From Solirubrobacterales bacterium (GTDB lineage Bacteria; Actinomycetota; Thermoleophilia; Solirubrobacterales; 70-9): a stretch of 45,479 bases of DNA. Where the stretch lies: the NCBI GenBank assembly GCA_050697055.1, contig JBOGZE010000351.1, positions 1 to 45,479 of the forward strand, read 5' to 3'. The notes beneath the pieces were generated by a model, which was given only the letters and a program-made list of their open reading frames with translations, had not been told where the DNA came from and did no database searches. The first letter of the stretch is position 1. Each line of letters opens with the position of its first letter. This document shows positions 7,916 through 45,479 of this stretch, one piece after another. Both the position numbers and the translations under genes were made by a program.

Positions 7916-7922
7916 CGACCGA

Positions 7923-20472: not shown

Positions 20473-20474
20473 CG

Positions 20475-23120: not shown

Positions 23121-24752
23121 TTGGCTAAGGCGATAGGTCCGGGATCGCAGGCGGCATGGTTCGTAGTTGCGGCCGTGGGGCTGCTGGTGATCGTGCTCGT
23201 CTTCGCCCTTGGGCTGTTCAAGCGGCTCGACGCCGCCGACCAGGTGCTCGACGGTGCCCGTCCGGCCTTCACCGAGGAACGCGTGCAGGGGGACATCGCC
23301 GGGATCAGCATCGTCTCCTCGATCACCGACCTGGCGGAGCCGATCGCCACCGACAGGAGCGGCACGGCGGCGGCCGAGGTGCCGAAGCTGGTCGCGTTCG
23401 TCTCCGAGCAGACGGGCCTGCCGCAGGCCCAGGTGCTGGCGCTGCTCGAGCAGAACTTCCCCCACACCACCGCGCTGCTGCAGGCGATTCCGCTGTCGGC
23501 GGTCACGACCGAGATCCCCAAGCTGATCGCCTTCCTCTCGCAGACGCTCGGCATCACCGAGGAGCAGGTGCTGGCGGCGATCCAGCAGAACTTCCCCGGC
23601 CTGGCGCAGTCGATCACCGCGCTGCCGGCCGTCACCGATGGCTGGCACAACGTCCCGGGCACCGAGAACCTGACCCGCTTCAACGGCGATCAGGTGACCG
23701 ACGTGCCGGACGTGCGCGACTACCTCTCCGAGGATCTGATTCCGGCGGTGGCGCGCCAGCAGGACAACTTCCAGAAGCTCGACGACCTCCCGGGCGGGCC
23801 CACCGCGATCCCGCCGCTGCTCTTGGTGCTCGGCGTGGGCGTGCTCGGCTTCGGGCTGTGGATGGCGCGCCCGGCCCAGGCCGATGCCCGCCGCAGGCCG
23901 ATCGCCTGGATCGTCGTGGTCGCGGCCGGCCTGATCGTGGTGGTGCTCGTGGCCGGGGTCATACAGGCCTTCTCCCGCCTCAATGCCGGGCAGGATCTGA
24001 TTGACGACCTGCAACCCGCCTTCACCCAGGAACGGGTCGAGGGTGCCCGCGCCGGGATCAACATCGTCTCCTCGATCACCGACCTGGTGGACCCGATCGC
24101 CACCGAGAGCGGCACCGCCGCGGCCGAGGTGCCGAAGCTGGTCGCCTTCGTCTCCGAGCAGACGGGCCTGCCGCAGGCCCAGGTGCTGGCGCTGCTCGAG
24201 CAGAACTTCCCCCACACCACGGCGCTGCTGCAGGCGATCCCGCTCTCCGACGTGAACGCCGAGGTCCCCAAGCTGATCGCCTTCCTCTCGCAGACCCTCG
24301 GCATCTCCCAGGAGCAGGTGCTGGCGGCGATCCAGCAGAACTTCCCCGGCCTGGCGCAATCGATCACCGCGCTGCCGGCCGTCACCGACGGCTGGGACCA
24401 GGTCCCGGGCACCGAGGACCTGACGCGCTTCAACGGTGATCAGGTGACCGACGTGCCGGACGTGCGCAACTACTTCTCTGAAGACGTCGTCCCCGTGCTC
24501 GAGAGCCAGCAAGGGAACTTCGAGGACACGGCGGACCCGTTCCCCGACCTGGACGTCTTCCCGCCGCTGCTGCTCGGGGTGGGCATCCTGGTGATCCTCT
24601 ACGGCTCGATCATGGCCGTATGGGCGGCGCGCGAGCTCCGCAGCGCAGGTCCTCCGAGCGGGGGCGGTCCGAGCGGGGAGGGCCACAACGGCGACGGCCC
24701 CAAGAAGGCCGGCCCGAACCGCCGCAAGGTGGCCGAGAAGGCCACCGCCTGA
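23121..24752 (+). CDS. four-TM membrane protein made of two ~250-aa tandem repeats
   Basis: TTG start after a GAGAGAGGGG RBS. The pattern TM, ~200-aa domain, TM occurs twice. The opposite-strand 562-aa ORF is a shadow. Confidence 0.75.
   Translation: MAKAIGPGSQAAWFVVAAVGLLVIVLVFALGLFKRLDAADQVLDGARPAFTEERVQGDIAGISIVSSITDLAEPIATDRSGTAAAEVPKLVAFVSEQTGLPQAQVLALLEQNFPHTTALLQAIPLSAVTTEIPKLIAFLSQTLGITEEQVLAAIQQNFPGLAQSITALPAVTDGWHNVPGTENLTRFNGDQVTDVPDVRDYLSEDLIPAVARQQDNFQKLDDLPGGPTAIPPLLLVLGVGVLGFGLWMARPAQADARRRPIAWIVVVAAGLIVVVLVAGVIQAFSRLNAGQDLIDDLQPAFTQERVEGARAGINIVSSITDLVDPIATESGTAAAEVPKLVAFVSEQTGLPQAQVLALLEQNFPHTTALLQAIPLSDVNAEVPKLIAFLSQTLGISQEQVLAAIQQNFPGLAQSITALPAVTDGWDQVPGTEDLTRFNGDQVTDVPDVRNYFSEDVVPVLESQQGNFEDTADPFPDLDVFPPLLLGVGILVILYGSIMAVWAARELRSAGPPSGGGPSGEGHNGDGPKKAGPNRRKVAEKATA
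23217..24500 (+). repeat. internal tandem duplication, period ~750 bp, with near-identical core
   Basis: 23371... and 24121... share about 125 nt with only a few mismatches (cggccgaggtgccgaagctggtcgc.ttcgtctccgagcagacgggcctgccgcaggcccaggtgctggcgctgctcgagcagaacttcccccacaccac). Copy 1 is about 23217-23750 and copy 2 about 23970-24500. Confidence 0.9.
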
Positions 24753-24759
24753 GCCTCGC

Positions 24760-25875
24760 TCAGCAGATCCGCGGCAGCGGGTCGCCGGCGAGCATGTCGA
24801 CCACGCGGGAGCCGCCGAAGGAGGTCTCGAGCAGGACCAGTCCGGGAGGCTCGGGCGTGACCTCGGCGACCGTAACGGCGTCGGCCCCGAGAGGGTGCGA
24901 GCGGAGCACGTCCAGGGCGGCGGCCTCGGCGTCGGGGGCGACCACGGCCGCCAGCTTGCCCTCGTTGGCGACGTAGAGCGGGTCGAGGCCGAGGATCTCG
25001 CAGGCGCCCGTGACCTCGGCCCTCACCGGCAGCGACGCCTCGTCGATGACGATGCCGAGCTCCGCCGCCAGGGCCAGCTCGGTGAGCACGGTGGCGAGGC
25101 CGCCACGGGTGGGATCGCGGAGGCAGCGGACGCCGTCGGGGACCGCCTCGAGCAGGGTCGTGACCAGCCCGTGCAGCGGGGCGGTGTCCGACTCCAGCTC
25201 GACCTCGAGCTCGAGATCGCCGCGGGCGATCATGATCGCCATCCCGTGGTCGCCGATCGAGCCCGAGACGATCACCCGGTCCCCGGCCTGGATCCTCCCC
25301 GGGGAGAGCTCGACGTCGGGCCCGAGGACACCGACGCCCGAGGTGTTGATGTAGAGACCGTCGGCCTTGCCACGTTCGACCACCTTGGTATCCCCGGTGG
25401 CGACCTCGACCTCGGCCGCCTTGGCGGCGGCGCCCATCGAAACGGCGATCTTCTCCAGGTCCGCAACCGGCAGCCCTTCCTCGACGATGAACCCGGCGGA
25501 CAGCGCCAGCGGCCTCGCCCCCGCCATCGCCAGGTCGTTCACGGTCCCGTTGACGGCCAGCTCGCCGATGTCGCCGCCGGGAAAGAACAGCGGCCGGACG
25601 ACGAAGGAGTCGGTGGTGAAGGCCAGCCGCGGCCCCGCACCGTCGCCGGGGCTGAGCAGGGCGCTGTCCGTGAGCGGCTCCAGGCGGGGGTTCCGCAGCG
25701 CGCGAAGGAACAGGGCCTCGATCAGGTCGTGACTCGACTTGCCGCCGGCGCCGTGCGAGAGCGTGATCTGCTGATCGAGAAGCTTGCGCCGGGGACGGCG
25801 ACGGCGCGCCTCGATCGCGTCCAGAACCTCCTCCTCGGAACGGCCCGGGCGGGTGCCGTCAGCCTCGCCGGGCAT
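24760..25875 (-). CDS. hypE: hydrogenase maturation protein HypE
   Basis: ITLSHGAGGK, AIR-synthase-like fold blocks, and C-terminal PRIC. The ATG at 25875 overlaps the hypD stop (ATGA). Confidence 0.93.
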   Translation of the reverse strand: MPGEADGTRPGRSEEEVLDAIEARRRRPRRKLLDQQITLSHGAGGKSSHDLIEALFLRALRNPRLEPLTDSALLSPGDGAGPRLAFTTDSFVVRPLFFPGGDIGELAVNGTVNDLAMAGARPLALSAGFIVEEGLPVADLEKIAVSMGAAAKAAEVEVATGDTKVVERGKADGLYINTSGVGVLGPDVELSPGRIQAGDRVIVSGSIGDHGMAIMIARGDLELEVELESDTAPLHGLVTTLLEAVPDGVRCLRDPTRGGLATVLTELALAAELGIVIDEASLPVRAEVTGACEILGLDPLYVANEGKLAAVVAPDAEAAALDVLRSHPLGADAVTVAEVTPEPPGLVLLETSFGGSRVVDMLAGDPLPRIC

Positions 25876-27071
25876 CAGGTCGACGAGGCCTGGGGCGCGG
25901 CGGCGCTCTCCTCGGGGCGAGTCCCGGCGCCGTTCGCCCGGCGCCTGCGGCCCGCGTGGCGGCCGTAGTTGTAGTACGCCGCGCAGGCGCCCTCGCTCGA
26001 GACCATGCAGGTGCCGATCGGATGGTCGGGTGTGCAGGCGGTCCCGAAGACCTTGCACTCCCAGGGCTTGATCACGCCCTTCAGCACCTCGCCGCACTGG
26101 CAGGCCTTTGGGTCGGCGACGCGGACGCCGGGCACCTCGAAGCGGACCTCGGCGTCCCAGTCGGCGAACTCCGGTCGCAACTTCAGGGCGCTCTGCGAGA
26201 TGAAGCCGAGGCCGCGCCACTCGAAGGTGGTCCGGAGCTCCATCGTCTCGGCGATCGCCTGCAGCGCCAGGGGGTTCCCCTCGTCGCGGACCACCCGGCT
26301 GTACTGGTTCTCGACCTCGCTTCGCCCGTCGGCGAGCTGCCGCAGGATCATGTAGACGCCCTGGAGGACGTCGAGTGGCTCGAAGCCGGAGACGACCACC
26401 GGCTTTCCGTAGTCGTTGGCGATGAAGCGGTAGGGGCGAAGGCCGATCACGGTGGAGACGTGGCCGGGCCCGACGAAGCCCTCCAGCCGCAGGTCCGGCG
26501 AGTCGAGAATGGCCCGGATCGCGGGGATGATCGTGACGTGGTTGCAGAAGAGCGAGAAGTTCTTGATTCCCTCGATCCGGGCTCGCTTCAGGGTGAGCGC
26601 GGTCGAGGGCGTGGTCGTCTCGAACCCGATCGCGAAGAAGACAACCTCCCGGTCGGGGTGCTCGCGAGCGATCTTGAGGGCGTCGAGGGGCGAGTAGACC
26701 ATCCGCACGTCGGCGCCGCGAGCTTTGGCGTCGAGCAGCGATCCCTTGCTGGCGGGGACCCGCATCATGTCGCCGAACGTCGTGAAGATCACCTCGGGGC
26801 GCTCGGCGATCGCGATCGCGTCGTCCTGGCGGCCCATCGGGATCACGCAGACCGGGCACCCAGGGCCGTGGACGAGCTCGATCTCGTCGGGGAGCAAGTC
26901 CTCGACGCCGTGCTTGTAGATCGCATGGGTGTGGCCGCCGCACACCTCCATCAGCTTGTAGGTCCGCCCCGGCTCGACCATGCCCGCGATCCGCTCGGCG
27001 AGTTGGCGGGCGACATCGCCGGAGCGGTACTCGTCGACGAAGCGCATGCCACTGTTGCCCGAGAGGCTCAT
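25875..27071 (-). CDS. hypD: hydrogenase maturation protein HypD
   Basis: MEVCGGHTHAI, GPGCPVCV, GFETT, and a C-terminal CxxxxxxC.. Cys cluster (CQCGEVLKG...CKVFGTACTPDHPIGTCMVSSEGAC). Confidence 0.95.
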   Translation of the reverse strand: MSLSGNSGMRFVDEYRSGDVARQLAERIAGMVEPGRTYKLMEVCGGHTHAIYKHGVEDLLPDEIELVHGPGCPVCVIPMGRQDDAIAIAERPEVIFTTFGDMMRVPASKGSLLDAKARGADVRMVYSPLDALKIAREHPDREVVFFAIGFETTTPSTALTLKRARIEGIKNFSLFCNHVTIIPAIRAILDSPDLRLEGFVGPGHVSTVIGLRPYRFIANDYGKPVVVSGFEPLDVLQGVYMILRQLADGRSEVENQYSRVVRDEGNPLALQAIAETMELRTTFEWRGLGFISQSALKLRPEFADWDAEVRFEVPGVRVADPKACQCGEVLKGVIKPWECKVFGTACTPDHPIGTCMVSSEGACAAYYNYGRHAGRRRRANGAGTRPEESAAAPQASST

Positions 27072-28486
27072 GCCCGCTCCCCGATCGCCTCGAGCAGCAG
27101 GTGGTAGATGGTCGCCTGCGCCTCCTGGATCCGTGGGATGTAGTCGCTCGGGACGATGAACAGGTGGTCGAGCCAGTCGAGTGCGGCGAGCCGGCCGCCG
27201 TCGTAACCGGCGATCCCGATTGTCAGCATGTGCCGCCGGCGGGCCTCCTCGAGCCCGGCGACGAGGTTGGGGGAGTTGCCGCTGGTGGAGATCGCGACGG
27301 CTACGTCGTGCGCCCGGCCGAGCGGGATCAGCTGCCGGGCGAAGGCCTTGTCGAAGCCGACGTCGTTGCCGACGGCAGTGATCGTGGCGACGTCGTTGTT
27401 CAGCGCCGTCGCGGGCCAGCCGTGGGCCAATGCGTCGGTCGCGAGGTCCTGGGCGTCGGTCGAGGAACCCCCGTTCCCGAACGTGATCAGGTGGCCCCCG
27501 CGCTGGAGGCGCTGCCGGATCTCGGCGGCGCAGCGCTCGACGGCGCCGGTGTCGATCCCCGAGCGCAGCTCGATCACGTCGGCGGCCTTCTGGCGAGTGG
27601 ACGACTCGACATCGGCGAGGACCGAGTCGATGTCGGTCTCCTCGCCTTCCAGGAATGGATAGAGGAAGCCGGTCGGGTCATCCGCGCTTTGGCTTGATGC
27701 TCCCTCCGGGCGCTCGCCCACCGCCGGGTCGCGTTGGCCGGGAGGGACCTTCTCCAGGGCCACCCCCGCGTGGCAGAGCAGCTCGTCGCCGACTTCGACC
27801 CCCTCGACCAGGTCGACGGCGACATCTTCGTGGGCGCCGTCCTTCTCGATCGTCGCGGTGCCGTTGCTGACCGCGACTACGCGCGCCTGCACGGCGATGT
27901 CGCCGCAGGTGATGCAGGCGTCGTCGAGCAGCCCGGGGTGCTCGAAGAAGACGTGGACCAGCTCCCAGAGCACGTGGTAGGCCGTCTCCTGAGTCTCCTG
28001 AACGATCGTGGCGTCCTCGCTCGGGACCTGGAATTCGTATTCGGCGTCGGCCCCGTGGGAGGCTCCAGGGCCGACCATCGCGATCGTCAGCATCCCGCGG
28101 CGACGCGCCTCGAGCAGGAAGGCTGCGATCTCCTCGTCGCCCCGGTCATGAGAGATCGCGAGCGCGATGTCATCGGCTCGGGCCAGCAGGGTGAGCTCCG
28201 CGGCGCCGGTCGGGTCGTTGGTCGGTGCGAGCGCCGGCAGCGCGCGCTTGCCGACGATCACCGGGTGCATGAACTCGACCGCCGCGTGGGCGGCGTCGGT
28301 CGCCGCCGCCCCGGTGCCGAATGGGATCAGGGTCCCGCCACGGGCGAACGAGCGCGCCATCGCGTGGCAGGCCCGGGCGAGCCGGGTCGCCTCGGCGTCG
28401 AAGAAGCCGCGAACGACGCGCTCGCGCTCGGCGATCAGGGCGTCCAGGCGGCCGGCGCCGAGAGTGGTCGTGCTCGGCCGGGCAGC
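27068..28486 (-). CDS. fusion protein: degenerate SIS domain, HypC/HupF-like OB domain, intact SIS (GmhA-like) domain
   Basis: C-terminal SIS: GGHLITFGNGGSSTDAQ ... AISTSGNSPN ... PRIQEAQATIYH. N-terminal SIS-like: GGTLIPFGTGAAATDAAH ... AISHDRGD ... IVQETQETAYH. Middle: CITCGDIAVQARVVAV...VGDELLCHAGVALEKV, which aligns to the HypC encoded next door. TTG at 28486 is the first in-frame start after the hypC stop. ATGA overlap with hypD. Confidence 0.75.
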   Translation of the reverse strand, partial: AARPSTTTLGAGRLDALIAERERVVRGFFDAEATRLARACHAMARSFARGGTLIPFGTGAAATDAAHAAVEFMHPVIVGKRALPALAPTNDPTGAAELTLLARADDIALAISHDRGDEEIAAFLLEARRRGMLTIAMVGPGASHGADAEYEFQVPSEDATIVQETQETAYHVLWELVHVFFEHPGLLDDACITCGDIAVQARVVAVSNGTATIEKDGAHEDVAVDLVEGVEVGDELLCHAGVALEKVPPGQRDPAVGERPEGASSQSADDPTGFLYPFLEGEETDIDSVLADVESSTRQKAADVIELRSGIDTGAVERCAAEIRQRLQRGGHLITFGNGGSSTDAQDLATDALAHGWPATALNNDVATITAVGNDVGFDKAFARQLIPLGRAHDVAVAISTSGNSPNLVAGLEEARRRHMLTIGIAGYDGGRLAALDWLDHLFIVPSDYIPRIQEAQATIYHLLLEAIGERA

Positions 28487-28494
28487 CAATGGTC

Positions 28495-28773
28495 CTACTC
28501 GATCACGCTGGTCTTGAGCTCGGCCAGCTCCTGCTCGTAGGGAGCGCCCAGCGTCTCCAGAAACTGGCGCGTCTGCTTCGCTTCCTCCTCGTCGATCTTC
28601 GACATCGCGAAGCCGACGTGGATCAGAACCCAGTCGCCGATCTCGACCCCGTCCTCGCCCTCGGCCAGAAGGCCCACGTTCACGTTTCGGCGAACGCCGG
28701 AGACCTCGGCCTTGGCGATGTGGTGCTCGGAATCGACGAGTTCGACGATCTGGCCGGGAATGCCTAAACACAT
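28495..28773 (-). CDS. hypC: hydrogenase maturation chaperone HypC
   Basis: Canonical MCLGIPGQIVEL N-terminus, 92 aa. AAGGAGGAG RBS upstream. Confidence 0.93.
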   Translation of the reverse strand: MCLGIPGQIVELVDSEHHIAKAEVSGVRRNVNVGLLAEGEDGVEIGDWVLIHVGFAMSKIDEEEAKQTRQFLETLGAPYEQELAELKTSVIE

Positions 28774-28777
28774 CTTG

Positions 28778-30964
28778 CTAACTCCTCCTTGCCGCGATCG
28801 CGGCCTGTCCGTAGCTGACGCCGCCGTCATTGGGCGGCACTTCGCGATGCTCCAGGACGCGGAAGCCCAAGTCAACGAGTCGGCGCCGCGTGCCTTCGAG
28901 CAGACGAAGATTCTGAAAGCTTCCTCCTGAGAGTACGACGGTGCGCGCCTCCGCCGCCTCCCCGCAGACCGCCGCAGCCACGGCCGTGACGCCCTCGTGG
29001 AAGGCAGCGGCGATCTCGGCGTGCGGACGGCCTACGTCAAGGTCGTCGTGCACGGCCGCGACCAGGTCGGATCCCCTGATCACACCGGCCTCTGTCGAGC
29101 ACGGATATGGCTCCGCCTCCACTTGGCCGGCGAGCTGCTCGAGCTCGATCGCCGCCTGCCCCTCGTAGCTGACACGTTCGCGGACGCCGAGCAGCGCGGC
29201 AACGGCGTCGAAGAGACGCCCCATCCCGGAAGAGAGCGGCGCGTTCACCTTGAGGCTCTCTCGCACCCTGGTCCAGTCGGCGAAGGGAACGGGACGCCCG
29301 GCTCTCTCGAGGTAGGAGGCGGCGGCGCGCCAGGGCTCCCGGATCGCCGCCTCGCCGCCAGGTAGCGCCACCGGCTCCAGATGCGCGACCCGCTCGAAGC
29401 CCTCGAGGTCGCAGCGCAGGAGCTCTCCGCCCCAGAGGGTGCCGTCGGTGCCGTAACCGGTGCCGTCGAAGACCAGCGCCAGCGCCGGGCCGGCCTCCCC
29501 GTGCTCCGCCAGGCACGAGGCGGCATGGGCGTGGTGATGCTGGACCTCGATCAGCTCGCCGGGCTGCTCGCGCGCCCAGCGGGTGGAGAGGTAGTCGGGA
29601 TGCAGGTCGCAGGCGATCACCTCGGCCTGGATCGCCAGCATCTCCAGGTAGAGCTCGAGGTCGGTGCGGAACGCGCGCAGGGCGGCCCCGGAATCGAGAT
29701 CGCCGAGGTGGGGGGAGAGGAAGGCGCGATCGCCGCGGGCGACGCAGAAGGTGCTCTTCAACTCGGCGCCGGCTGCGACGATCGGGCGGCGCGCCGGGAG
29801 AGGAAGCGGCAGCGAGCCTGGCGCGAACCCGCGAGAGCGCCGGACCGGGAAGGCGGCGCGGACGACCGAGTCCTCGCAGCGACGGTGGATGGGCCGGTCG
29901 TGGCTGAGGAACGCGTCCGCGATCCCCCCGAGCCGCTCCCGGGCATCGTCGTCCTCGAATGCGATCGGCTCGTCCGAGTGGTTGCCGCTGGTCATCACCA
30001 GAGGCCCGTCGAAATCGGCGCAGAGCAGATGATGGAGGGGGGTGTACGGCAGCATCACCCCGACCCAGGGGCTGCCAGGCGCGATCGAGGCCGCCAGGGG
30101 CGCCCCCTCGGACCCGCGCGCGATCACGATCGGATGCTCGCGGGACTCCAGCAGCTCGCTCTCGTCGGGCTCGAGGTCCGCGAGCGCCCCGGGCATTGCG
30201 GCCATCACGGCAACCGGCTTCTCCTCGCGGTGCTTGCGCCGGCGCAGGCGGGCGACCGCCAGCTCGCTGGCCGCATCGCAGGCGAGGTGGTAGCCGCCGA
30301 GCCCCTTGACCGCAACGATTGCCCCGTCGTGGAGCAGCCGCACGGCCGCGGCCAGCGCCTCTTCGCCGACCGCCCCGTTCAGCGTGAGCTGGGGACCGCA
30401 GTCCGGACAGGCGATCGGCTCAGCGTGGAAGCGGCGATCGGCAGGATCCTCGTACTCGGAGCGGCAAGCCCGACACATCTCGAAACCGGCCATCGTCGTT
30501 TTGGGCCGGTCGTATGGCGTGCGCTGCACGATCGTGAACCGTGGCCCGCACTGCGTGCAGTTGATGAACGGGTAGCGGAACCGGCGATCGTCCGGATCGA
30601 ACAATTCGGCTAGGCATTGGACGCAGGTGGGGGCATCGGCCGGGACAAGGGCGCTGGCCTGGCCCTCGGCGCTCACCTCGATCCGGAAGTCTCGCTCGCC
30701 CCGCGGCTCGATCGCCTCGGCGACGATCGAATCGACGCGGGCGAGGGACGGCGCCTCCCTGGTCAGGGCGGCGGCGAACTCGTCGAGGGAGCCGGGCGGG
30801 CCCTCGGCCTCCACCACCACCCCCCGTCCATCGTTGAGCACGAATCCCGCGATCCCACTCCGGCTGGCGAGGCCGTGCACAAAGGGGCGGAAGCCGACGC
30901 CCTGGACTACCCCCGTGATCCGAAAGCGGCGCCGCCCCAGAAGATGCTGCGGCGCTACTGCCAT
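28778..30964 (-). CDS. hypF: carbamoyltransferase HypF
   Basis: Acylphosphatase domain (ITGVVQGVGFRPFV), two zinc-finger pairs (CVQC...CTQCGPRF, CRAC...CPDCGPQL), and YrdC-like and Kae1-like domains. Confidence 0.95.
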   Translation of the reverse strand: MAVAPQHLLGRRRFRITGVVQGVGFRPFVHGLASRSGIAGFVLNDGRGVVVEAEGPPGSLDEFAAALTREAPSLARVDSIVAEAIEPRGERDFRIEVSAEGQASALVPADAPTCVQCLAELFDPDDRRFRYPFINCTQCGPRFTIVQRTPYDRPKTTMAGFEMCRACRSEYEDPADRRFHAEPIACPDCGPQLTLNGAVGEEALAAAVRLLHDGAIVAVKGLGGYHLACDAASELAVARLRRRKHREEKPVAVMAAMPGALADLEPDESELLESREHPIVIARGSEGAPLAASIAPGSPWVGVMLPYTPLHHLLCADFDGPLVMTSGNHSDEPIAFEDDDARERLGGIADAFLSHDRPIHRRCEDSVVRAAFPVRRSRGFAPGSLPLPLPARRPIVAAGAELKSTFCVARGDRAFLSPHLGDLDSGAALRAFRTDLELYLEMLAIQAEVIACDLHPDYLSTRWAREQPGELIEVQHHHAHAASCLAEHGEAGPALALVFDGTGYGTDGTLWGGELLRCDLEGFERVAHLEPVALPGGEAAIREPWRAAASYLERAGRPVPFADWTRVRESLKVNAPLSSGMGRLFDAVAALLGVRERVSYEGQAAIELEQLAGQVEAEPYPCSTEAGVIRGSDLVAAVHDDLDVGRPHAEIAAAFHEGVTAVAAAVCGEAAEARTVVLSGGSFQNLRLLEGTRRRLVDLGFRVLEHREVPPNDGGVSYGQAAIAARRS

Positions 30965-30966
30965 GG

Positions 30967-31263
30967 TCAGGTGCCCGCTGAGGCCTTCTCCCTGCCGGGG
31001 GGCTCGCCGGCCCCGCCGGCGGGCTTCTTCCCGGTGACCTCTTCGAGGGCCCCGGCGACCTGCTCCAGGGCGCCGTTGATGTCACCGACCACCGGCCCGA
31101 TCGGCTCGGTCTGCTTCTCGATCGCGCGCACTCCGAAGGTGACCAGCCCGAGGGTGTGTGAGACGCGCCGCAGGATGGTGGCGATCGCGATCAGGTAGAC
31201 AGCCAAGACGACGACCAAGATCGCGAGCTCGACAAGGGTGAGGACGATCAACAGGGTCTCCAT
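30967..31263 (-). CDS. small single-pass membrane protein, paralogue 4 of 4 (98 aa)
   Basis: N-terminal hydrophobic helix, then LRRVSHTLGL... and a helical tail. Its stop lies 2 nt before the hypF ATG. Confidence 0.6.
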   Translation of the reverse strand: METLLIVLTLVELAILVVVLAVYLIAIATILRRVSHTLGLVTFGVRAIEKQTEPIGPVVGDINGALEQVAGALEEVTGKKPAGGAGEPPGREKASAGT

Positions 31264-31542
31264 CTACTTACCTTTCTCCTTTCGCGCGAGCGCCCCGTGG
31301 CGCTCTACCTCCTCCAGCAGCTCCAGTCCGAGCTCCCTCGTGTTTCCAAGCATGTGCGTCGTCTGCGTGTTCCCAGCGACCCGCTTGCCCATAGTCCAGA
31401 CGTCGTCGACGGCCCGCTCCACCTCGTTCACGGTGCGTCTCAGGGCCTCGAGCAGCGCCCAGACGGCCAGGGCGATGACCAGGCCGCCGGCCAGCGACGC
31501 CCACCAGGCGACCTCGACCGAGTTCGAGAGCGCGATCGGCAT
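31264..31542 (-). CDS. small single-pass membrane protein, paralogue 3 of 4 (92 aa)
   Basis: TM helix, then LRRTVNEVERAVDDVW...NTREL. Abuts the next gene with a 0-nt gap. Confidence 0.6.
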   Translation of the reverse strand: MPIALSNSVEVAWWASLAGGLVIALAVWALLEALRRTVNEVERAVDDVWTMGKRVAGNTQTTHMLGNTRELGLELLEEVERHGALARKEKGK

Positions 31543-31814
31543 CAGAGCTTGCCCTTCACGATCTCGAGATAGGCGACGGCGAGGCCGGGCACCACCGTTG
31601 CGAGATCCCGCGTGCGGGCGAGCTCGTCGACGCCGTCGAGGTTGCGGGCGATGCCCAGGCCCCCCTCGAGAATGTCGTCCGCGTAGCCGTCGATCTCCCT
31701 GGCGGGTCGGACGATTCGGTTGAAGAGGGCGAGAACCACCACCAGCAGCACCAGTCCGACCGCGAGCCCGATCAGGGAGAGCACGAAGATCCCGGTGGAG
31801 ACGGCGAGCATCAT
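31542..31814 (-). CDS. small single-pass membrane protein, paralogue 2 of 4 (90 aa)
   Basis: TM helix, then NRIVRPAREIDGYADDIL...RTRDL. Overlapping junctions: ATGA upstream and TGATG downstream. Confidence 0.6.
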   Translation of the reverse strand: MMLAVSTGIFVLSLIGLAVGLVLLVVVLALFNRIVRPAREIDGYADDILEGGLGIARNLDGVDELARTRDLATVVPGLAVAYLEIVKGKL

Positions 31815-32053
31815 CCCGTGAGGGCCTTCCGCGCTGCCGCGAGGCCGCGAGTGATCCGGTCGACCGCCAGGTTGGTGTTCTTCACTTCGTAAAGCGGATC
31901 GGTGTTCTTGCGGGTCCCGTCGAGCGCGGCGGTTATGTCATCCGCCTGGCGCACGATGCGCCGCCCGAGCCCGATGATCGTCAACAGCAGGGTCGCCGCG
32001 AGCACCACCACGACCACGGCGATCATCCAACCGATCAACCACCAGGCGGACAC
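31811..32053 (-). CDS. small single-pass membrane protein, paralogue 1 of 4 (80 aa)
   Basis: GTG start 3 nt after the DUF1059-like stop. TM helix, then RRIVRQADDITAALDG... Confidence 0.6.
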   Translation of the reverse strand: MSAWWLIGWMIAVVVVVLAATLLLTIIGLGRRIVRQADDITAALDGTRKNTDPLYEVKNTNLAVDRITRGLAAARKALTG

Positions 32054-32056
32054 GGG

Positions 32057-32260
32057 TCAGGCCTTCCCCGGCTCCGGCTCGCCCTCGTCCCGTATCACGC
32101 TTTGCGCATATCTGGCAAGGGTCTGCGCCTGGGTCAGGTCGACGCCGTGCTTCTTGCGAGCGTGCTCGACCGCCTGTTGCAGGACCTCCTCCTCGGTCTC
32201 GCCGACGATCTTGGCGTGGCAGGGCACCCCCGCGTCCGAGCACTGAAAGGTCTTCGCCAA
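32057..32260 (-). CDS. DUF1059-like small metal-binding protein (67 aa)
   Basis: AKTFQCSDAGVPCHAKIVGETEEEVLQQAVEHARKKHG matches the DUF1059 pattern. TTG at 32260 lies 5 nt after a GGAGGAG RBS and is preferred over the track start at 32317. Confidence 0.65.
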   Translation of the reverse strand: MAKTFQCSDAGVPCHAKIVGETEEEVLQQAVEHARKKHGVDLTQAQTLARYAQSVIRDEGEPEPGKA

Positions 32261-32658: not shown

Positions 32659-32742
32659 TAATTGGGACCAAGATCCCCTTGATTTCCAATGGAAGCCGGG
32701 GTAGGGTCGCGGCTCCCAAATGGTCGGAAGCGAGGAGAAGTT

Positions 32743-33801
32743 GTGAGCGTTGAGGTGACGTCGGCCGGGCCGATCCCGGTGGATCGCGCACCTGGCCCCG
32801 AGCGTGGCGGAGCGTCGCACGCTCTCTCCGCCCTGGAGCCGGTCGCCCTCGCCGCGACCCGGGCAGCGGCGCTCGCCTGCCAGGAATTCGTCGGCCGCGG
32901 GGACAAGACCGCCGCGGATGCCGCGGCGACCGAGGCGATGCGGTCGGAGCTCTCGACCGCCCCTGGCATCGGAACGGTGGTGATCGGCGAGGGAGAGAAG
33001 GACGAGGCGCCGATGCTCTACAACGGGGAGCAACTGGGCGTCGGCGGGCGCGAGTTCGACATCGCGGTCGATCCGCTGGAGTGCACGACCTTTTGCGCAA
33101 AGGGATTGCCCGGCTCACTCGCCACGATCGCGTTCGCGGAGCGGCGCACTCTGCTGCGGCCGGGTCCCTCCTTCTACATGGACAAGCTCGTGGTCGCCGC
33201 GCCCGCTCGCGACGCCATCGACATCACTGATCGCCCCGAGGCGAATGTCACCCGTATCGCTTCCGCCCTCGGCAAGGCGACTGCCGAGCTTCGCGTGGTG
33301 GTCTTGGACAAGCCCCGCCATGCCGAGCTGATCGGACGGTTGCATCGCACCGGGGTCTCCGTGATCACGCCGGCGGACGGCGACGTGGCGGGTGCGCTCC
33401 AGGCTCTGCTGCCTTCGCTGGAGGCCGACGCGCTGATGGGCATCGGGGGAACGCCCGAGGGCGTGATGACCGCGTGCGCCGCAAAGGCGGTCGGAGCGGG
33501 CATGCAGGCCCGGCTCGCCCCCCAGGATGAAGCGGAGGCTCAGGCGCTCGCCGAGGCGGGCTTGGACACCGATCAGGTCTTCGAGTTGGACGACCTCGTC
33601 GGCGGCTCGGCCTTCTTCGCCGCGACGGGAGTCACCGGCGGCTCCCTGCTCGGTCCCCCAAGGGAAGTGGATGGAGACCTGGTCACCCAGTCGATCCTCG
33701 TCTCCCAGCATTCAGTGAGCTTCGTGGAGGCCCGGCATGCGGGTCACGGGGGACCCACCACGACGACGGATCCATCGAGAGAACACATGGAGGTCGATTA
33801 G
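32743..33801 (+). CDS. glpX: class II fructose-1,6-/sedoheptulose-1,7-bisphosphatase (GlpX type)
   Basis: GRGDKTAADAAATEAMR, VIGEGEKDEAPML, DIAVDPLECTT, GIGGTPEGV. GTG at 32743 lies 5 nt after a GAGGAG RBS. Confidence 0.9.
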   Translation: MSVEVTSAGPIPVDRAPGPERGGASHALSALEPVALAATRAAALACQEFVGRGDKTAADAAATEAMRSELSTAPGIGTVVIGEGEKDEAPMLYNGEQLGVGGREFDIAVDPLECTTFCAKGLPGSLATIAFAERRTLLRPGPSFYMDKLVVAAPARDAIDITDRPEANVTRIASALGKATAELRVVVLDKPRHAELIGRLHRTGVSVITPADGDVAGALQALLPSLEADALMGIGGTPEGVMTACAAKAVGAGMQARLAPQDEAEAQALAEAGLDTDQVFELDDLVGGSAFFAATGVTGGSLLGPPREVDGDLVTQSILVSQHSVSFVEARHAGHGGPTTTTDPSREHMEVD

Positions 33802-33803
33802 CA

Positions 33804-34832
33804 ATGGAGAGAGCAGAGCTCGAGATGACCGCTCAGGCGATGGTGGCCGAGGGCAGGGGCATTCTCGCCGCCGACGAGAGCACGGGCACGATGGACAAGC
33901 GGCTCGAAGGCGTCGGGGTCGCACCCACCGAGGAGGCGCGCCACGCCTTCAGGAACATGGTGCTCACGGCCGACGGCGCCGGGCAGTTCATCAGCGGCGT
34001 GATCATGTACGACGAGACCCTCCGCCAGGCGACCTCCGACGGTATCCCCTTCCCGGAGTATCTGGCGCAGCGTGACGTGCTGCCGGGGATCAAGGTGGAC
34101 ACCGGCGCCAAGCCGCTCGCAGGCTACCCGGAGGAGACGGTCACCGAAGGGCTCGACGGCCTTCGGGAGCGCCTCGGCGAGTACCGTCAGCTCGGCGCGC
34201 GGTTCGCGAAGTGGCGGGCGGTGATCAAGATCGGCCCGGGGCTGCCGACCCTTGGCTGCATCGACGCGAACGCCCATGCGCTCGCCCGCTACGCGGCTCT
34301 CTGCCAGGAGGCCGGGATCGTCCCGATCGTGGAGCCCGAGGTGCTGATGGACGGCGATCACACCATCGATCGCTCGGAGGAGGTCACCACGGAGGTGCTT
34401 CGGGCGGTCTTCGGTCAACTCGCTGATCAGCGAGTGCGGCTCGAGGGGATCGTCCTGAAGCCGAACATGCTGCTCTCCGGTTATGACTGCCCGGAGCAGG
34501 CGAGCGTCGCGGAGGTCGCCGAGCGGACGCTGATCTGCTTTCGGCGCGTGGTGCCTGCCGCGGTGCCCGGGATCGCCTTCCTCTCCGGCGGACAGAGCGA
34601 CGACCTGGCGGCCGCGCACCTCGACGCCATGAACAGGCTCGGCGGAGTTCCCTGGGAGCTGACCTTCTCGTACGGCCGTGCGCTTCTGGCCGCGTGCCTG
34701 AAGACGTGGTCTGGCGACAGCTCCAGGGTTGACGAGGCTCAGGCCACCTATCTCCATCGCGCCCGCTGCACGGCGGCCGCCCGGAACGGCGAGTACAGCG
34801 AGTCGATGGAGAGAGAGCTGGTTGCTTTTTGA
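33804..34832 (+). CDS. fba: class I fructose-bisphosphate aldolase
   Basis: GILAADESTGTMDKRL and the Schiff-base Lys block LEGIVLKPNM are class I (PF00274-type) motifs. Confidence 0.9.
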   Translation: MERAELEMTAQAMVAEGRGILAADESTGTMDKRLEGVGVAPTEEARHAFRNMVLTADGAGQFISGVIMYDETLRQATSDGIPFPEYLAQRDVLPGIKVDTGAKPLAGYPEETVTEGLDGLRERLGEYRQLGARFAKWRAVIKIGPGLPTLGCIDANAHALARYAALCQEAGIVPIVEPEVLMDGDHTIDRSEEVTTEVLRAVFGQLADQRVRLEGIVLKPNMLLSGYDCPEQASVAEVAERTLICFRRVVPAAVPGIAFLSGGQSDDLAAAHLDAMNRLGGVPWELTFSYGRALLAACLKTWSGDSSRVDEAQATYLHRARCTAAARNGEYSESMERELVAF

Positions 34833-34834
34833 TA

Positions 34835-34852
34835 CATAGCTATATCTCTATG
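34835..34852 (+). promoter_or_regulatory. dyad CATAG-N8-CTATG at the head of the AT-rich fba-cbbL spacer
   Basis: CATAGCTATATCTCTATG contains the palindrome ATAGCTAT. The 122-bp spacer (34833-34954) is far more AT-rich than its surroundings. Confidence 0.4.
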
Positions 34853-34864
34853 AAAGAGGAGTGA

Positions 34865-36409
<1,545 letters not shown>

Positions 36410-36433
36410 CACCGCCAAGAAAGAGGCAGACCA

Positions 36434-36907
36434 ATGCGAGTCACACAGGGCACGTTCTCGTTCCTCCCCGACCTCACCGACGAGGAGATCGAGGCTCAGA
36501 TTCGGTACGCGCTCAGCAACGGATGGGCGATCGGGGTCGAGTACACCGACGACCCACACCCGCGCAACTCCTACTGGGAGATGTGGAGTCACCCCCTGTT
36601 CGATCTGGGGGAGGACGAGACCGAGGAGCCGATGCGCTTGATGCGCGAGTGTCGCACCGCGAATCCCAACCACTACATCAAGGTGACCGCCTACGACTCC
36701 AACTACGGCAGGCAGACGACCGCGCTCGCCTTCATCGTCAACCGCCCCGCGGATGAGCCCGGATTCAGGCTCGATCGAACGGATGTCGGCGACCGCCAGA
36801 TGGTCTACCGGCTCCAGCCCTACGCGACGCTCCGCGAGCCCGTCGGCCGCCGCTACGGCAACTCACCCGACGCGACCGGCGCAGCCAAGGACGGCGCCGG
36901 GTCCTGA
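36434..36907 (+). CDS. cbbS: RuBisCO small subunit (red-type, with C-terminal extension)
   Basis: [44 protein letters not shown] ... [26 protein letters not shown]. Confidence 0.93.
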
Positions 36908-36936
36908 GGACCCGACCTTCAACGAGGAAAACAGCG

Positions 36937-38046
36937 ATGGCCGACCAGGCATTCACCATGAATCGAAAGAGGCCCGGCGACTCCCGCGCGGCCACCCGGC
37001 CGCCCGAGGAGCCAAAGCCGACGGCCGAGATCGACCGCATCATGGCCGACGCCGCCGACTCCGAGGCGAGCGTGCAGACGATCTTGCGCGAGACCCACGT
37101 CAACCAGGTGCTCGAAGACCTGGATGCGGAGCTGGTCGCGCTCGAGCCGGTGAAGCGGCGCATCAACGAGATCGCCGCATTGTTGGTGATCGACCGGCTG
37201 CGCCAGGAGCACCGCCTGAGCTCGGAGCGTCCGACCCTCCACATGTCCTTCACGGGCAACCCCGGCACCGGCAAGACAACGGTCGCGCTGCGGATGGCCG
37301 AGATCCTGAATCGCCTCGGCTATCTCGAGAAAGGGCACGTCGTCTCGGTCACCCGTGACGAGCTCGTCGGGCAATACGTCGGCCACACCGCTCCGAAGAC
37401 CAAGGAGGTGATCAAGAGGGCCTACGGTGGAGTCCTCTTCATCGACGAGGCCTACTACCTGCATCGCCCGGAGAACGAACGCGACTACGGCGCGGAGGCG
37501 ATCGAGATCCTGCTCCAGGTGATGGAGGCGGACCGCGACAAGCTGGTGGTGATCCTGGCGGGTTACAAGGATCGGATGGACCAGTTCTTCGAGTCCAACC
37601 CCGGGATGGGCTCGCGGGTGGCCCACCACGTCGACTTCCCCGACTACGACGTGGGCGAGCTGATGGAGATCGCCGACCTGATGCTGGATCGCGCCTCCTA
37701 TCGACTCTCGCCAGATGCCGAGAAGGCACTTCGCGAGTACACCGAGCGACGGATCGAGCAGCCCCGGTTCGCCAACGGCCGCAGCATCCGCAACGCGATC
37801 GACCGCGCGCGGCTACGCCAGGCGAGCCGGTTGTTCGAGAGCGACGGTCAGCTGAGCAAGGATCAGCTGGTCACGATCGAGGCCGAGGACATCTACGCGA
37901 GCAGCGTCTTCGAGTCAAAGCATAAGGATAGCTCGATGAATAGCCCAGGAAGTTTTGCTTGCAATCCATCCATGTCACGGCTAGATTCGCCTGCCTTCCC
38001 GCGGGATGCGGGAGGCGCCGAGGCGACCGGCGAGAGTGCGAGCTAG
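36937..38046 (+). CDS. cbbX: CbbX-type AAA+ RuBisCO activase
   Basis: [60 protein letters not shown]. About 40 aa extra at the C-terminus. Confidence 0.9.
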
Positions 38047-38056
38047 GAGACGCGCA

Positions 38057-39091
38057 ATGCCACGACCAATCATCCTCGGAGTGGTCGGCGATTCGGCGGC
38101 CGGAAAGACGACCCTAACTCGCGGCCTCGTGCGCGCCTTCGGCAAGGACAAGGTGGCTCACGTCTGCACCGACGACTACCACCGATACGACCGCGAGCAA
38201 CGGGCCGAGATGAACATCACGCCGCTGAACCCTGCGTGCAACCACGTCGACATCATGGGCCAGGACCTCCGGCACCTCCGCGCCGGCGAGGCCATCCTGA
38301 AGCCCGTCTACAGCCATTCGGACGGCACCTTCCGCGCGCCGGTCTACGTCAGGCCTCACGCGTTCAGCGTGGTCGAGGGGCTGCTCGGTTACCACACGCC
38401 GGAAATGCGCGCGTGCTACGACGTTCGCGTCTATCTGAAGCCCCCGGAGGAACTGCGGCGGCATTGGAAGGTGCAGCGCGACTGCTCGCGCCGCGGCTAC
38501 ACCACCGACCAGGTCTTGGCTGAGCTCGATCGGCGCGAGCCCGACTCCGCCGCATACATCCGTCCCCAGGAGCGCTACGCCGACATGGTGGTCTCATTCA
38601 TGCAGGGCGAGACGGACAACCCGGACCGCCTCGACGCCGAGATCCTCCTCCGTGAGGGGCTTCCCCACCCCGACCTCTCGCCGTTCATCGGCAACGGGGG
38701 GCGGGGGATCACGCTCGAGGAAGGCGATCGCGAGCGGCTGGTGCAGATTCCGGGTGACATCGACCCGAATCGCGCCGCTGAGCTCGAGGAGGCGATCTGG
38801 GACAGGCTCCACTTCGCTCCGCACCTGCGCAGCCAGCGGCTGGGCGAGTTCACGATCGGCATCGATCTGCACCGCTCCGAGTCGCTCGCGCTGGTGCAGC
38901 TGCTGATCCTGTACCACATGGCGACCGCCCGCGCGGCCGTCGCCCTCGGGGGCGAGGGCACCCGAGCGGAGGGGCCCACCGACGAGCATCCGGTGATCGA
39001 TCCCGAGCTGGACCCAGACGCCGATTCCGACCCCAACGCCGGCTCCGACCCGGACGCCGGCCCCGACCAAGTCAGCGCGGTCGAGCAGTGA
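38057..39091 (+). CDS. prk: phosphoribulokinase
   Basis: [15 protein letters not shown]-loop, DDYHRYDR, and [11 protein letters not shown] at 38057 lies after an AGGAGA RBS. Acidic low-complexity C-terminal tail. Confidence 0.9.
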
Positions 39092-41145
39092 ACGCCGCCG
39101 CGACCAGGATGGGGATTGAAGCGCTCCACACCGACGAGCGGGTGGATCGCGTCTGCATCAACACGATCCGGACCCTGACGATGGACGCCGTCGAGAAGGC
39201 GAACTCGGGCCATCCCGGGATGCCGCTGGCGATGGCGCCCGTCGCGCATCTGCTCTACGCGCGCTACCTCAGGCACAACGCCGACGACCCGGGCTGGCCG
39301 GACCGCGACCGCTTCATCCTCTCGGCCGGGCATGGGTCGATGCTCCTCTACAGCGTGCTGCACCTGAGCGGCTACGGCCTCTCGCTGGAGGAGATCAAGC
39401 GCTTCCGCCAGTGGGACTCTCTCACACCGGGCCACCCCGAGCGCGTGCTCGGCGGCCACGCGACACCGGGAGTCGAGACGACTACGGGGCCGCTCGGCCA
39501 GGGGTTCGCGAACGGGGTCGGGATGGCGATCGCCGAGCGCTTCCTGCGGGATCGCTACGGGGCCGACCTCATGGACCACCGGGTGTTCGCGATCTGCTCG
39601 GACGGCGACATGATGGAGGGCGTCGCGTCGGAGGCCGCTTCGCTCGCCGGGCATCTGGGCCTTGGGCGCATCGTCTACCTCTACGACGACAACCACATCT
39701 CGATCGACGGCGGCACCGCCCTCAGCTTCGACACCGAGGACGTGGGTGCGCGCTTCCGCGCATACGGGTGGCACGTGGAAGAGGTCGATGACGCCAACGA
39801 CCAGGCGGCTTTGTCGATCGCGATCGAAGCGGGGATCGCCGACGAAGACCGCCCGTCCCTGATCCGGGTGCGCTCGATCATCGGCTGGCCGGCGCCGAAC
39901 GCCCAGAACACCGCGGCGGCGCACGGAGCCGCTCTGGGTGAGGACGAGGTGCGCGCCACGAAGGAGGCGCTCGGCTGGGACCCGGACCTGGAGTTCGAGG
40001 TGCCGGCGGAGGCTTACGAGGCATTCCATCCCGCGGCCGCCCGCGGCCAGTCCCTTCAGCGTCAATGGGAGGAGCGCCTGGCGAGCCGGCGCAAGAGCGA
40101 TCCCGAGTTGATGGCCGAGTGGGACCGCGCTTGGGAGGGCAAGCCCGCCGACGGCCTCGCCGACGCGCTGCCCTCGTTCGACCCCGCGGAGAAGGACGCC
40201 CTCGCCACCCGCACGGCGGGCAACGCCACGATGCAGGCGTTCGCGCCCTATTTCCCGACGATGCTCGGAGGGGCTGCGGATCTCGCCGAGTCGACCAAGA
40301 CCGAGTTCAAGGACGCGGAAGGCTTCAGCCGCAAGCGCGCGGGCCGGAACCTGCATTTCGGTGTGCGCGAGCACGCCATGGGGGCTGTCGTCAACGGCAT
40401 GGCCCTCCATGGCGGGATCGTGAAGCCATACGGCTCGACCTTCCTGATCTTCTCCGACTACATGCGCCCCGCGATCCGGCTCTCGGCGCTGATGCGGTTG
40501 CCGGTCGTGTGGGTCTTCTCGCACGACTCGGTCGGCCTCGGCGAGGACGGTCCGACCCACCAGCCGGTGGAGCACTATGCGGCGCTCCGGGCGATCCCCG
40601 GCCTCACGGTCATTCGCCCCGCAGACGCCGGCGAAACCGCCGAGGCGTGGCGGGTCGCGCTCGAGGAGTGCGACGGTCCCGCGTGCCTCCTACTGACGCG
40701 GCAGGGCGTGCCGGTGCTCGACCGCACGCGTCTGGCTGCGGCGGACGGGCTCGCTCGAGGCGCCTACGTGCTCTCGGAACCCACCGAGGGGCGGACCGAC
40801 GCGGTGATAGTCGCCACCGGTTCCGAGGTGGCGCTGGCGCTCGAGGCGCAGGAAGAGCTGCGCGAGCACGGGATCGCGGCGCGCGTGGTGTCGATGCCCT
40901 CGTGGGAGCTGCTGGACATGCAACCGGACGAGTACGTCGAGTCGCTCTTCCCGCCCGAGGTGCCGGTTGTCGCCGTGGAAGCGGGGATCGGGTTCGGGTG
41001 GGAGCGCTTTGCTGATCTCACTGTGTCGGTCGAGCGCTTCGGCGCATCTGCCCCCGGTGCGGAAGTACTGCGCCAGTTAGGGATTACCGCCGAGGCGGTG
41101 ACGGCAGCGGTCCGCGAGCTTGCCGAGCCGCCGATCGCGGCCTAG
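39088..41145 (+). CDS. tkt: transketolase
   Basis: [28 protein letters not shown], and [12 protein letters not shown]. The GTG start overlaps the prk stop (GTGA). Confidence 0.95.
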
Positions 41146-43777: not shown

Positions 43778-43839
43778 TTGACTTTCACCCCTCGCCGCGA
43801 TCTAGTATGTGCTCTGGACATCTAGAGGTCGCTCGCTAG
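43778..43839 (+). promoter_or_regulatory. candidate promoter and CTAG-rich repeats upstream of the hydrogenase genes
   Basis: TTGACT (43778-43783) and TAGTAT (43803-43808) with a long 19-nt spacer. Three CTAG-containing elements: CTAGTATGTGC (43802), CTAGAGGTCGC (43822), CTAGTCCCGCC (43836). Confidence 0.35.
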
Positions 43840-43865
43840 TCCCGCCGCGACGAGGAGAGAGAAGG

Positions 43866-45227: not shown

Positions 45228-45479
45228 ATGTGCTTCAAGAACCTCCCGATCACATTCGACAAGGACGGGAATGCTCGCCTGAAGGAAGGCGTCGCCGACC
45301 CGTACTCCTACACGGTGACGGAGACCCCGCCCCTCGCCGACGACGAGGGGAGGCTGAAGCGGCTGCTGGCGCGCAACGGCCACATCCGCCAGGTCGACTT
45401 CGACCCGGTGACTCGGGTCGCCGGCGCGCTCGCCTTCCACAGCGTGGTTGACCTCGAGAACCGCAAGGTGCTGGAGACC
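45228..45479 (+). CDS. [NiFe]-hydrogenase large subunit, N-terminal 84 codons (continues beyond the window)
   Basis: ATG lies 4 nt after the small-subunit stop. DFDPVTRVAGALAFHSVVDLENRKVLET aligns with the canonical DP.TR.EGH...V....GKV N-terminal block. The frame is open to the window end. Confidence 0.75.
   Translation, partial: MCFKNLPITFDKDGNARLKEGVADPYSYTVTETPPLADDEGRLKRLLARNGHIRQVDFDPVTRVAGALAFHSVVDLENRKVLET

Follow-up and report, generated by a model that had tools for sequence, protein, structure and literature searches.

Results

A block of five short genes leads into hypF

The DNA analysed here is a 45,479-nt contig from a Solirubrobacterales bacterium (GenBank assembly GCA_050697055.1, contig JBOGZE010000351.1), referred to as the window, and our subject is a block of five short minus-strand genes at the head of its hyp operon. 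The first gene of the operon (32057–32260, minus strand, TTG start) encodes a small Cys/His protein of 67 aa that belongs to the DUF1059 family. It is followed on the same strand by four genes for single-pass membrane proteins, which we named class A (31811–32053, 80 aa, GTG start), class B (31542–31814, 90 aa), class C (31264–31542, 92 aa) and class D (30967–31263, 98 aa), the last being the most divergent. The hypF gene, encoding a carbamoyltransferase (28778–30964, minus strand; TIGR00143 in NCBIfam, E = 4e-222), lies 2 nt downstream of D. A preliminary description of the window had already listed five short open reading frames (ORFs) leading into hypF, and their positions and sizes were borne out. 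The junctions were re-read and found as claimed: from DUF1059 through A, B, C and D to hypF they are a 3-nt gap, ATGA, TGATG, 0 nt and 2 nt.

A GGAGGAG ribosome-binding site ends 6 nt ahead of the TTG start of the DUF1059 gene, and purine-rich Shine-Dalgarno-like stretches stand ahead of A, C and D. Inside the five-gene block no terminator-like hairpin was seen on the minus strand. The 430-bp divergent intergenic region likewise offered no convincing signal for a promoter, terminator or repeat, and the window contains no Rfam family. The G+C content of the window is ~70%; that of A–D is 0.88–0.92 at third codon positions (GC3) and 0.37–0.48 at second codon positions (GC2), much as in the securely identified genes nearby. 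The ratio of nonsynonymous to synonymous substitution rates (dN/dS), determined against three related loci, was 0.17–0.42 for A–D, and a word-indexed database search returned more than 1,300 homologues, the named ones from metagenome-assembled genomes (MAGs) of Solirubrobacterales. Taken together, the coding-type composition, the dN/dS values and the number of homologues indicate that A–D are real genes, and they are under purifying selection.

The first gene had been called DUF1059-like from its Cys/His pattern, and Pfam agreed (PF06348, E = 1.5e-13; 51.2 bits against a gathering cut-off of 21.1). The motifs C-x6-C-H and H-x4-HGV are common to the window protein and to its counterparts in three loci discussed below (L018, L020 and L021). 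A search of the PDB by sequence gave no solved relative of this protein.

A–D are single-helix membrane proteins of one family

Each of A–D has one N-terminal hydrophobic helix, with a 19-residue Kyte-Doolittle mean of 2.0–3.2, followed by two to three Arg/Lys residues and a tail of ~50–75 residues with no second hydrophobic segment. Lys and Arg were richer behind the helix than ahead of it in most family representatives (129 of 145), which predicts that the short N-terminus lies outside and the tail in the cytoplasm. The family consensus consists of a W-rich interface, the transmembrane helix, and the motifs R..R.I, A.DI, G, N(T/L) and L..T. A–D contain no Cys and no conserved His, and NCBIfam gave no match for any of them.

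We then compared class profiles with hhalign. The probabilities were 97.9% for A-B, 98.4% for A-C, 99.0% for B-C, 95.2% for A-D and 85% for C-D, and the B-D comparison was not significant. With the transmembrane helix removed, the tails of A-B, A-C and B-C alone still gave 83–96%. Judged by these profiles, A, B and C are firm paralogues and D is a distant member that is tied in mainly via A. The proposal of four paralogous single-pass proteins with cytoplasmic helical tails thus held for A, B and C, and for D only in the sense of a distant relative. An AlphaFold2 monomer of class B was one continuous helix from residue 2 to 89 (pLDDT 81.5, pTM 0.38); such a lone long helix, as modelled, would be typical of a subunit that becomes ordered only inside a bundle. 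A PDB sequence search with the family profile returned designed coiled coils and other compositional matches only.

Apparent two-class fusions (B-C, A-C and A-B) were seen in the ORFs P0010, P0138, P0141, P0180 and P0313 and at 8001–8639 of locus L019. We set these aside as evidence of interaction, their Arg/Pro-rich linkers resembling out-of-frame translation; they are probably indel or assembly artefacts at overlapping stop/start codons.

Genes at the head of the hyp operon: a Thermoleophilia-specific order

The window was compared with loci designated L001–L021, in which the family occurs in three layouts relative to the genes of the hydrogenase small subunit (SSU) and large subunit (LSU). 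In type I the genes lie between SSU and LSU, in type II they lie upstream of or near SSU-LSU, and type III is the Thermoleophilia arrangement at the head of the hyp operon. A scan of the genome collection with a narrow alignment (A5) gave nine Thermoleophilia loci. In eleven Thermoleophilia loci the block has the order DUF1059-A-B-C-D and is divergent from the structural genes, which run LSU<-SSU<- on the other side. The typical continuation after D is hypF-hypC-HypC/SIS-hypD-hypE. In two Gaiellaceae loci (L011 and L012), a HypC/SIS-type gene comes after D and hypF is not at that place. The order in these two loci, together with the other layouts, shows that linkage to hypF is a lineage-specific gene order and not a defining association. 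Thus, the link to hypF and maturation cannot be kept as the defining feature of the block, since elsewhere the genes lie between the structural genes or directly upstream of them; only in Thermoleophilia has a rearrangement brought them to the head of the hyp operon.

In a Solirubrobacteraceae MAG (L013, 1651–4132) the four-gene block occurs twice in tandem, giving eight family genes between DUF1059 and hypF. In all related loci the operon headed by DUF1059 and the hydrogenase structural genes are directly divergent, unlike in the window. There, a complete Calvin-cycle operon (32689–41145, plus strand) is inserted between the block and the SSU gene, and thus separates the DUF1059/A–D/hyp operon from the structural genes. 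It encodes a glpX-type FBPase, a class I aldolase, the RuBisCO large and small subunits, a CbbX-like AAA protein, phosphoribulokinase and transketolase.

A–D are related to the HylTM proteins of group 1l-type loci

In the group 1l hydrogenase, small membrane genes between hylS and hylL were named HylTM1-5 and proposed as a membrane anchor that docks on HylS at its C-terminal extension (Ortiz et al., 2020 preprint, 10.1101/2020.08.06.239558). In a 2026 paper (PMC13554262), an AlphaFold model presents HylTM1-5 as two tube-like scaffolds that hold a cytosolic (HylLS)2 core on the membrane, with the distal cluster placed near the membrane. In size and topology (short ORFs of ~80–110 aa, predicted single-pass membrane proteins), A–D are of the HylTM type.

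A profile built from the window proteins and close Solirubrobacterales homologues only (A2) was searched against 1.84 billion representative proteins and matched 776 clusters at E <= 1e-3, nearly all of them 75–140 aa. One of these, P0232, is a class C relative from a lower-G+C organism (E = 1.3e-9 with A2), and its gene lies between SSU and LSU. P0232 and its relatives in L014, L015 and L016 share the arrangement SSU-[five small membrane-protein genes of ~90–110 aa]-LSU; an additional 34-codon ORF among the interposed genes of L014 and L015 is probably spurious. A further contig reads hypF...hypE-SSU-[95, 93, 94, 96, 93 aa]-LSU-178 aa-Rieske-HycI. We count positions along the interposed genes of L014 and L016, not by the published HylTM1-5 numbering. 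Profile A2 matched positions 1, 2, 4 and 5 in both L014 and L016, and a broader model that includes P0232 (A3) also matched position 3 in L014. Best and second-best matches, reciprocal in 149 representatives, gave the class map A = 1, C = 2, B = 4 and D = 5 (weaker, 3). In phmmer, class A matched position 1 of L014 best, and 32 representative clusters gave the reciprocal pattern. On the strength of these profile matches, A–D are homologous to the HylTM family of group 1l-type loci. The suggestion that the block is an undescribed system therefore does not stand: its proteins are homologues of the interposed proteins of group 1l-type loci, which have already been published as HylTM1-5, a proposed anchor.

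The window and group 1l share the protein family (by profile search), its size, and the plan of one N-terminal transmembrane helix with a helical tail; they probably also share the enzyme clade (four-Cys proximal cluster, extended SSU and, in the LSU of the close relative L001, ~40% identity to group 1h), and they share the proposed anchor role. The differences lie in number and arrangement. HylTM1-5 has five genes between the subunit genes, and the window has four on the opposite strand, ~11.5 kb from the SSU gene, in a divergent DUF1059-headed operon that runs into hypF. The third, D-like gene has no counterpart in the window, and the window order A, B, C, D corresponds to L014 positions 1, 4, 2, 5. 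The published text gives the five HylTM proteins as only 12–30% identical and does not present them as one paralogous family with conserved classes. In addition, HylTM4 is reported to have a C-terminal tri-Cys motif, and no window member has one. Four class C members (P0182, P0202, P0250 and P0261) do end in a CPGCPxC-type tri-cysteine motif, as reported for 'HylTM4'. Because the motif is present neither in C of the window nor in the L014 and L016 proteins, any iron-sulphur (FeS) or metal role would be lineage-specific.

The same four classes occur in group 1m-like loci

Group 1m clusters were described as listing DUF1059 and two small single-helix proteins (Ray et al. 2022, PMC9561532). In the high-G+C actinobacterial loci L018, L020 and L021 (partly L017), we found B, D and DUF1059 either directly upstream of SSU-LSU or close by, with TPR, NifU-type, HycI and several CbiA/CooC genes in the surroundings. 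The class A and C genes of L020 stand elsewhere in the same cluster; in L018, a class A gene and a further small ORF that is cut off by the locus end lie at the locus edge. Compared with the group 1m cluster of Ray et al., the window has in common adjacent SSU and LSU genes, DUF1059, small single-helix proteins (82–92 aa in group 1m), CooC/CbiA-type NTPases and an actinobacteriotal host. The reported cluster has two small proteins and the window four; in the loci that match the 1m description, the two beside DUF1059 are B and D. TPR, NifU-type and BirA-like genes are listed for group 1m, whereas of the window genes that we scanned, none near the block was of the TPR or NifU kind.

All of the classes A, B, C and D are present in each of the three layouts, and that the four are kept through three gene arrangements argues for a fixed hetero-oligomer. 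DUF1059 adjoins family members in type II and type III clusters, and neither the type I nor the group 1h loci that were fetched contain it; in the interposed layout there is one D-like gene more, and DUF1059 is missing from the DNA fetched.

The papers that we found do not state that the small proteins form one family whose four classes run through the group 1l-type, 1m-like and window layouts. Nor do they describe the four-class rule, the alternation of DUF1059 with a fifth membrane gene, or the four-gene, DUF1059-headed, hyp-linked arrangement.

The family goes with hydrogenases of the 1l/1m clade

The SSU gene of the window (43809–45224, plus strand; assigned by Pfam, start codon uncertain) belongs to a [NiFe] hydrogenase of the group 1l/1m clade, and its product is presumed to be the docking partner of A–D. 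The LSU gene runs off the window after its first 55 codons (45315–45479, plus strand), which are 78% identical to the LSU of L001 by tblastn. When compared with group 1h SSUs by tblastn, the window SSU showed 45–51% identity and the match stopped near residue 390 of 471. In the alignment it has CDGC where the group 1h proteins of C. necator and M. intracellulare have CDGD. Its C-terminal extension reaches ~75 residues past the group 1h end, and the first ~50 of these are conserved in the three layouts. As the preliminary description had noted, the SSU has no conserved twin-arginine (Tat) signal. The traits published for the group 1l SSU are a four-Cys proximal cluster (Asp in 1h) and a C-terminal extension of ~100 aa (Ortiz et al., 10.1101/2020.08.06.239558), and both were found in the window SSU.

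We next compared large subunits. In L001, the closest full locus (SSU 74% identical to that of the window), the LSU is 39–41% identical to group 1h and groups with the interposed-gene (1l-type) lineage at 63% identity, against 53–56% with the 1m-like lineage, and the LSU of the Gaiellaceae locus L011 groups with the 1m-like loci (78–81% identity). Across all family-bearing loci, LSUs are 37–41% identical to group 1h and 53–63% identical across layout lineages, with the L1 motif RACGVCGGVH and the L2 motif DPCMPCTTH; the three group 1h LSUs are 77–79% identical mutually and have the L1 motif RICGICGDNH. These are pairwise identities, and by them the window enzyme would fall in the 1l/1m clade as a whole.

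The three group 1h clusters examined (Streptomyces, C. necator pHG1 and M. intracellulare) contained neither family members nor DUF1059, and tblastn of the B protein and a 1l-type LSU against plasmids returned group 1h clusters only. The presence of the family in loci of the 1l/1m clade and its absence from these group 1h clusters show that it tracks the 1l/1m enzyme clade. That A–D belong to a hydrogenase, as first proposed, is thus upheld by the recurrence of the family in hydrogenase loci of this clade.

Discussion

Because the position of A–D varies with respect to both the hyp and the structural genes, they are most likely structural subunits. We suggest that A–D probably, though far from certainly, dock a cytosolic hydrogenase onto the membrane by means of a helical stalk and do not act as maturation factors. 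A tether or scaffold for a cytosolic hydrogenase was one of the functions first considered for the block; it is the best reading of the present data, and it has already been published as a hypothesis for the same family.

The following sequence of steps would account for such a role. Each of A–D would insert with its short N-terminus outside, leaving the basic collar and a helical tail of ~50–60 residues in the cytoplasm. One copy of each class might then pack into a hetero-oligomeric helical bundle or stalk, and synthesis in equimolar amounts would be favoured by the overlap of stop and start codons. With its cytoplasmic end the stalk would dock on the clade-specific C-terminal extension of the SSU, near the distal FeS cluster, so that a Tat-less, cytoplasmic, O2-tolerant, H2-oxidising enzyme is held at the membrane. 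Electrons could then reach the quinone pool directly or via a Rieske-type protein, which is encoded beside LSU in relatives.

Several observations weigh against the anchor proposal. In the window itself A–D are co-oriented and translationally coupled with hypF, and the structural genes are ~11.5 kb off across the Calvin-cycle operon. The equation with HylTM was built on loci that match the published architecture (L014–L016 and one contig), not on the H. roseosalivarius type sequences. Two loci carry family genes apart from any hydrogenase gene seen: L017 has B, D and DUF1059 beside CbiA genes, with no hydrogenase gene in the 16 kb fetched, and L019, the locus with an apparently fused B-C ORF, has none within 8 kb upstream, its contig ending ~1.2 kb downstream. 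The literature found contains no experiment that ties any HylTM-type protein to a hydrogenase or to the membrane. What has been published is a predicted model, and the hetero-oligomer of A–D and its docking on the SSU are likewise putative. Finally, A–D have no Cys or other obvious redox ligand and so cannot relay electrons themselves.

Membrane partners of hydrogenases are known in other forms. Cytochrome b anchors of the HyaC/HoxZ type couple classical membrane-bound group 1 uptake [NiFe] hydrogenases to the quinone pool as membrane partners of the SSU. They are multi-helix haem proteins that serve periplasmic, Tat-exported enzymes, whereas A–D are single-helix proteins with no conserved haem ligands that would serve a cytoplasmic one. 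The only experimentally established analogue is HucM, a membrane-associated coiled-coil tube that carries menaquinone for the mycobacterial group 2a hydrogenase Huc (Grinter et al. 2023, PMC10017518), and it is an unrelated protein. Like the role proposed for A–D, HucM is a small extra subunit whose helical C-terminal part connects a high-affinity hydrogenase of the cytoplasm with the membrane and with the quinone pool. It is encoded with the structural genes of Huc. However, HucM is a homotetramer that is peripheral at the membrane, and the window encodes four different proteins, each with a true transmembrane helix. There is no detectable sequence relationship, so the resemblance would be one of possible working and not of family.

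This analogue bears on one alternative, in which the tails build a tube with a hydrophobic lining; several SSU-LSU dimers would be organised by it, and menaquinone would travel through it to the enzyme, as HucM does for Huc. The precedent of HucM in Huc, the tube-like structures of the published AlphaFold model, the coiled-coil-like tails and the conservation of four distinct classes across layouts are all consistent with such a scaffold or quinone conduit. On the other hand, A–D show no sequence similarity to HucM and have true N-terminal transmembrane helices, which HucM does not. We regard a conduit of this kind as unlikely; it would in any case be a refinement of the anchor proposal rather than a true alternative to it.

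A second alternative is that A–D and DUF1059 form a membrane platform for the Hyp machinery and stay outside the finished enzyme. Such a platform might take over Ni or Fe from a transporter, for instance, or localise HypF, C, D and E. The translational coupling to hypF in one operon, seen in the window and in nine related loci, would fit such a role in maturation or metal hand-off, as would the conserved Cys/His of DUF1059 and the frequent neighbourhood of genes for CooC/CbiA-type NTPases and peptide/Ni-type ABC transporters. But the genes lie between the structural genes in type I and directly upstream of SSU in type II, hypF is not adjacent in L011 and L012, and group 1h enzymes use the same Hyp set without A–D-type proteins. 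A–D themselves, with no Cys and no conserved His, lend no support to the idea of a metal hand-off device that had been put forward as the other possible function. Taken together, these data make a maturation role of either sort quite improbable.

The last alternative, that A–D are generic DUF948-like membrane stress proteins that lie beside hypF by chance, is effectively refuted. Like A–D, the bacterial proteins of Pfam DUF948 are small and have a coiled-coil tail behind an N-terminal transmembrane helix, and a DUF948 affiliation had been guessed at the outset; but the scores that could speak for it, 19.6 bits for D (E = 1e-3) and 13.4 bits for C (E = 0.09), are far under the gathering cut-off of PF06103 (37.2 bits), and A and B gave no match. 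When 127 diverse members were scanned singly, 2 touched DUF948 at E ~1e-3 and none attained any Pfam cut-off. Chance neighbourhood is also at odds with the hydrogenase genes present in the DNA fetched for every sampled locus but L019 and L017, the latter still having cluster-type CbiA and DUF1059 neighbours. A literature search found nothing on DUF948 with hydrogenase, nor on group 1h with a transmembrane protein and hypF.

Returning to the anchor proposal, a bolder version of it would hold for the 1l/1m hydrogenases as a whole. It is conceivable, but in our opinion doubtful, that all of them carry one heteromeric stalk built from one copy each of four ancient paralogue classes plus a variable fifth element, and that this stalk is a quinone-conducting or redox-active coupling device and not a passive tether. 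The fifth element might be another D-like protein where the genes are interposed, the tri-Cys tail of class C in some lineages, or, in layouts such as that of the window, the soluble Cys/His protein DUF1059. Such a stalk would be a heteromeric and truly transmembrane counterpart of HucM, by analogy.

The route by which electrons from atmospheric H2 enter the respiratory chain through cytoplasmic, O2-tolerant, high-affinity hydrogenases has been solved only for Huc, via HucM. The group 1l/1m enzymes are dominant in some desert soils, and for them the HylTM anchor that has been proposed is so far only predicted. To this the present locus adds one family whose four classes are conserved through three gene arrangements, a family that follows the 1l/1m enzyme clade and neither the maturation genes nor group 1h, and DUF1059 as a recurrent companion, found with these genes in two layouts out of three. 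The gene arrangement of the window also links H2 oxidation and CO2 fixation physically; because the block is back-to-back with a complete RuBisCO-containing Calvin-cycle operon, the organism looks like a hydrogen-driven CO2 fixer.

Other genes of the window and recurring neighbours

The remaining hyp genes follow hypF on the minus strand. An ORF of 567 aa (27068–28771) combines a HypC-like domain, a second HypC domain and SIS (Pfam HupF_HypC and SIS_2; tblastn to L001). The same stretch is two genes in L001 and L002 (92 aa and ~460 aa), and the HypC and SIS genes are also separate in C. necator pHG1. Next come hypD (25875–27071; PF01924, E = 1e-159) and hypE (24760–25875, start approximate; 81% identity over 24763–25860 in tblastn with HypE of L001). 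Convergent with hypE is an ORF of 543 aa on the plus strand (23121–24752; GC3 0.93) with no credible Pfam match. A 517-aa gene occupies the same position in L001 (17219–18772), the likeness being one of size and place only.

Downstream of the hyp genes, the plus strand encodes an FG-GAP/RTX-repeat protein of 884 aa and a BNR-repeat protein of 545 aa (17818–22112), and FG-GAP and BNR genes similarly flank the cluster in L001 and L002. Further along, the minus strand carries two CbiA/CooC-type NTPase genes and then a gene whose 898-aa product combines two AAA domains with an FtsH-type M41 peptidase domain (7181–11428). L020 again has a pair of CbiA genes together with an FtsH-like and a BNR-repeat gene; CbiA genes are present in L001 and L002, and a BNR-repeat gene in L001.

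We also noticed a recurrent protein of 130–150 aa in 1l-type and 1m-like clusters (L014, 13757–14149; L016, 4167–4622; L020, 6134–6529). It has no Pfam family recorded and lies beside PadR and CbiA genes in L020. It bears the motif WRDEILQ(V/L)M(Y/F)W...FADEFA(G/D)LT...HG(E/D)C, followed by a short Cys-rich stretch such as GPDCPHC.

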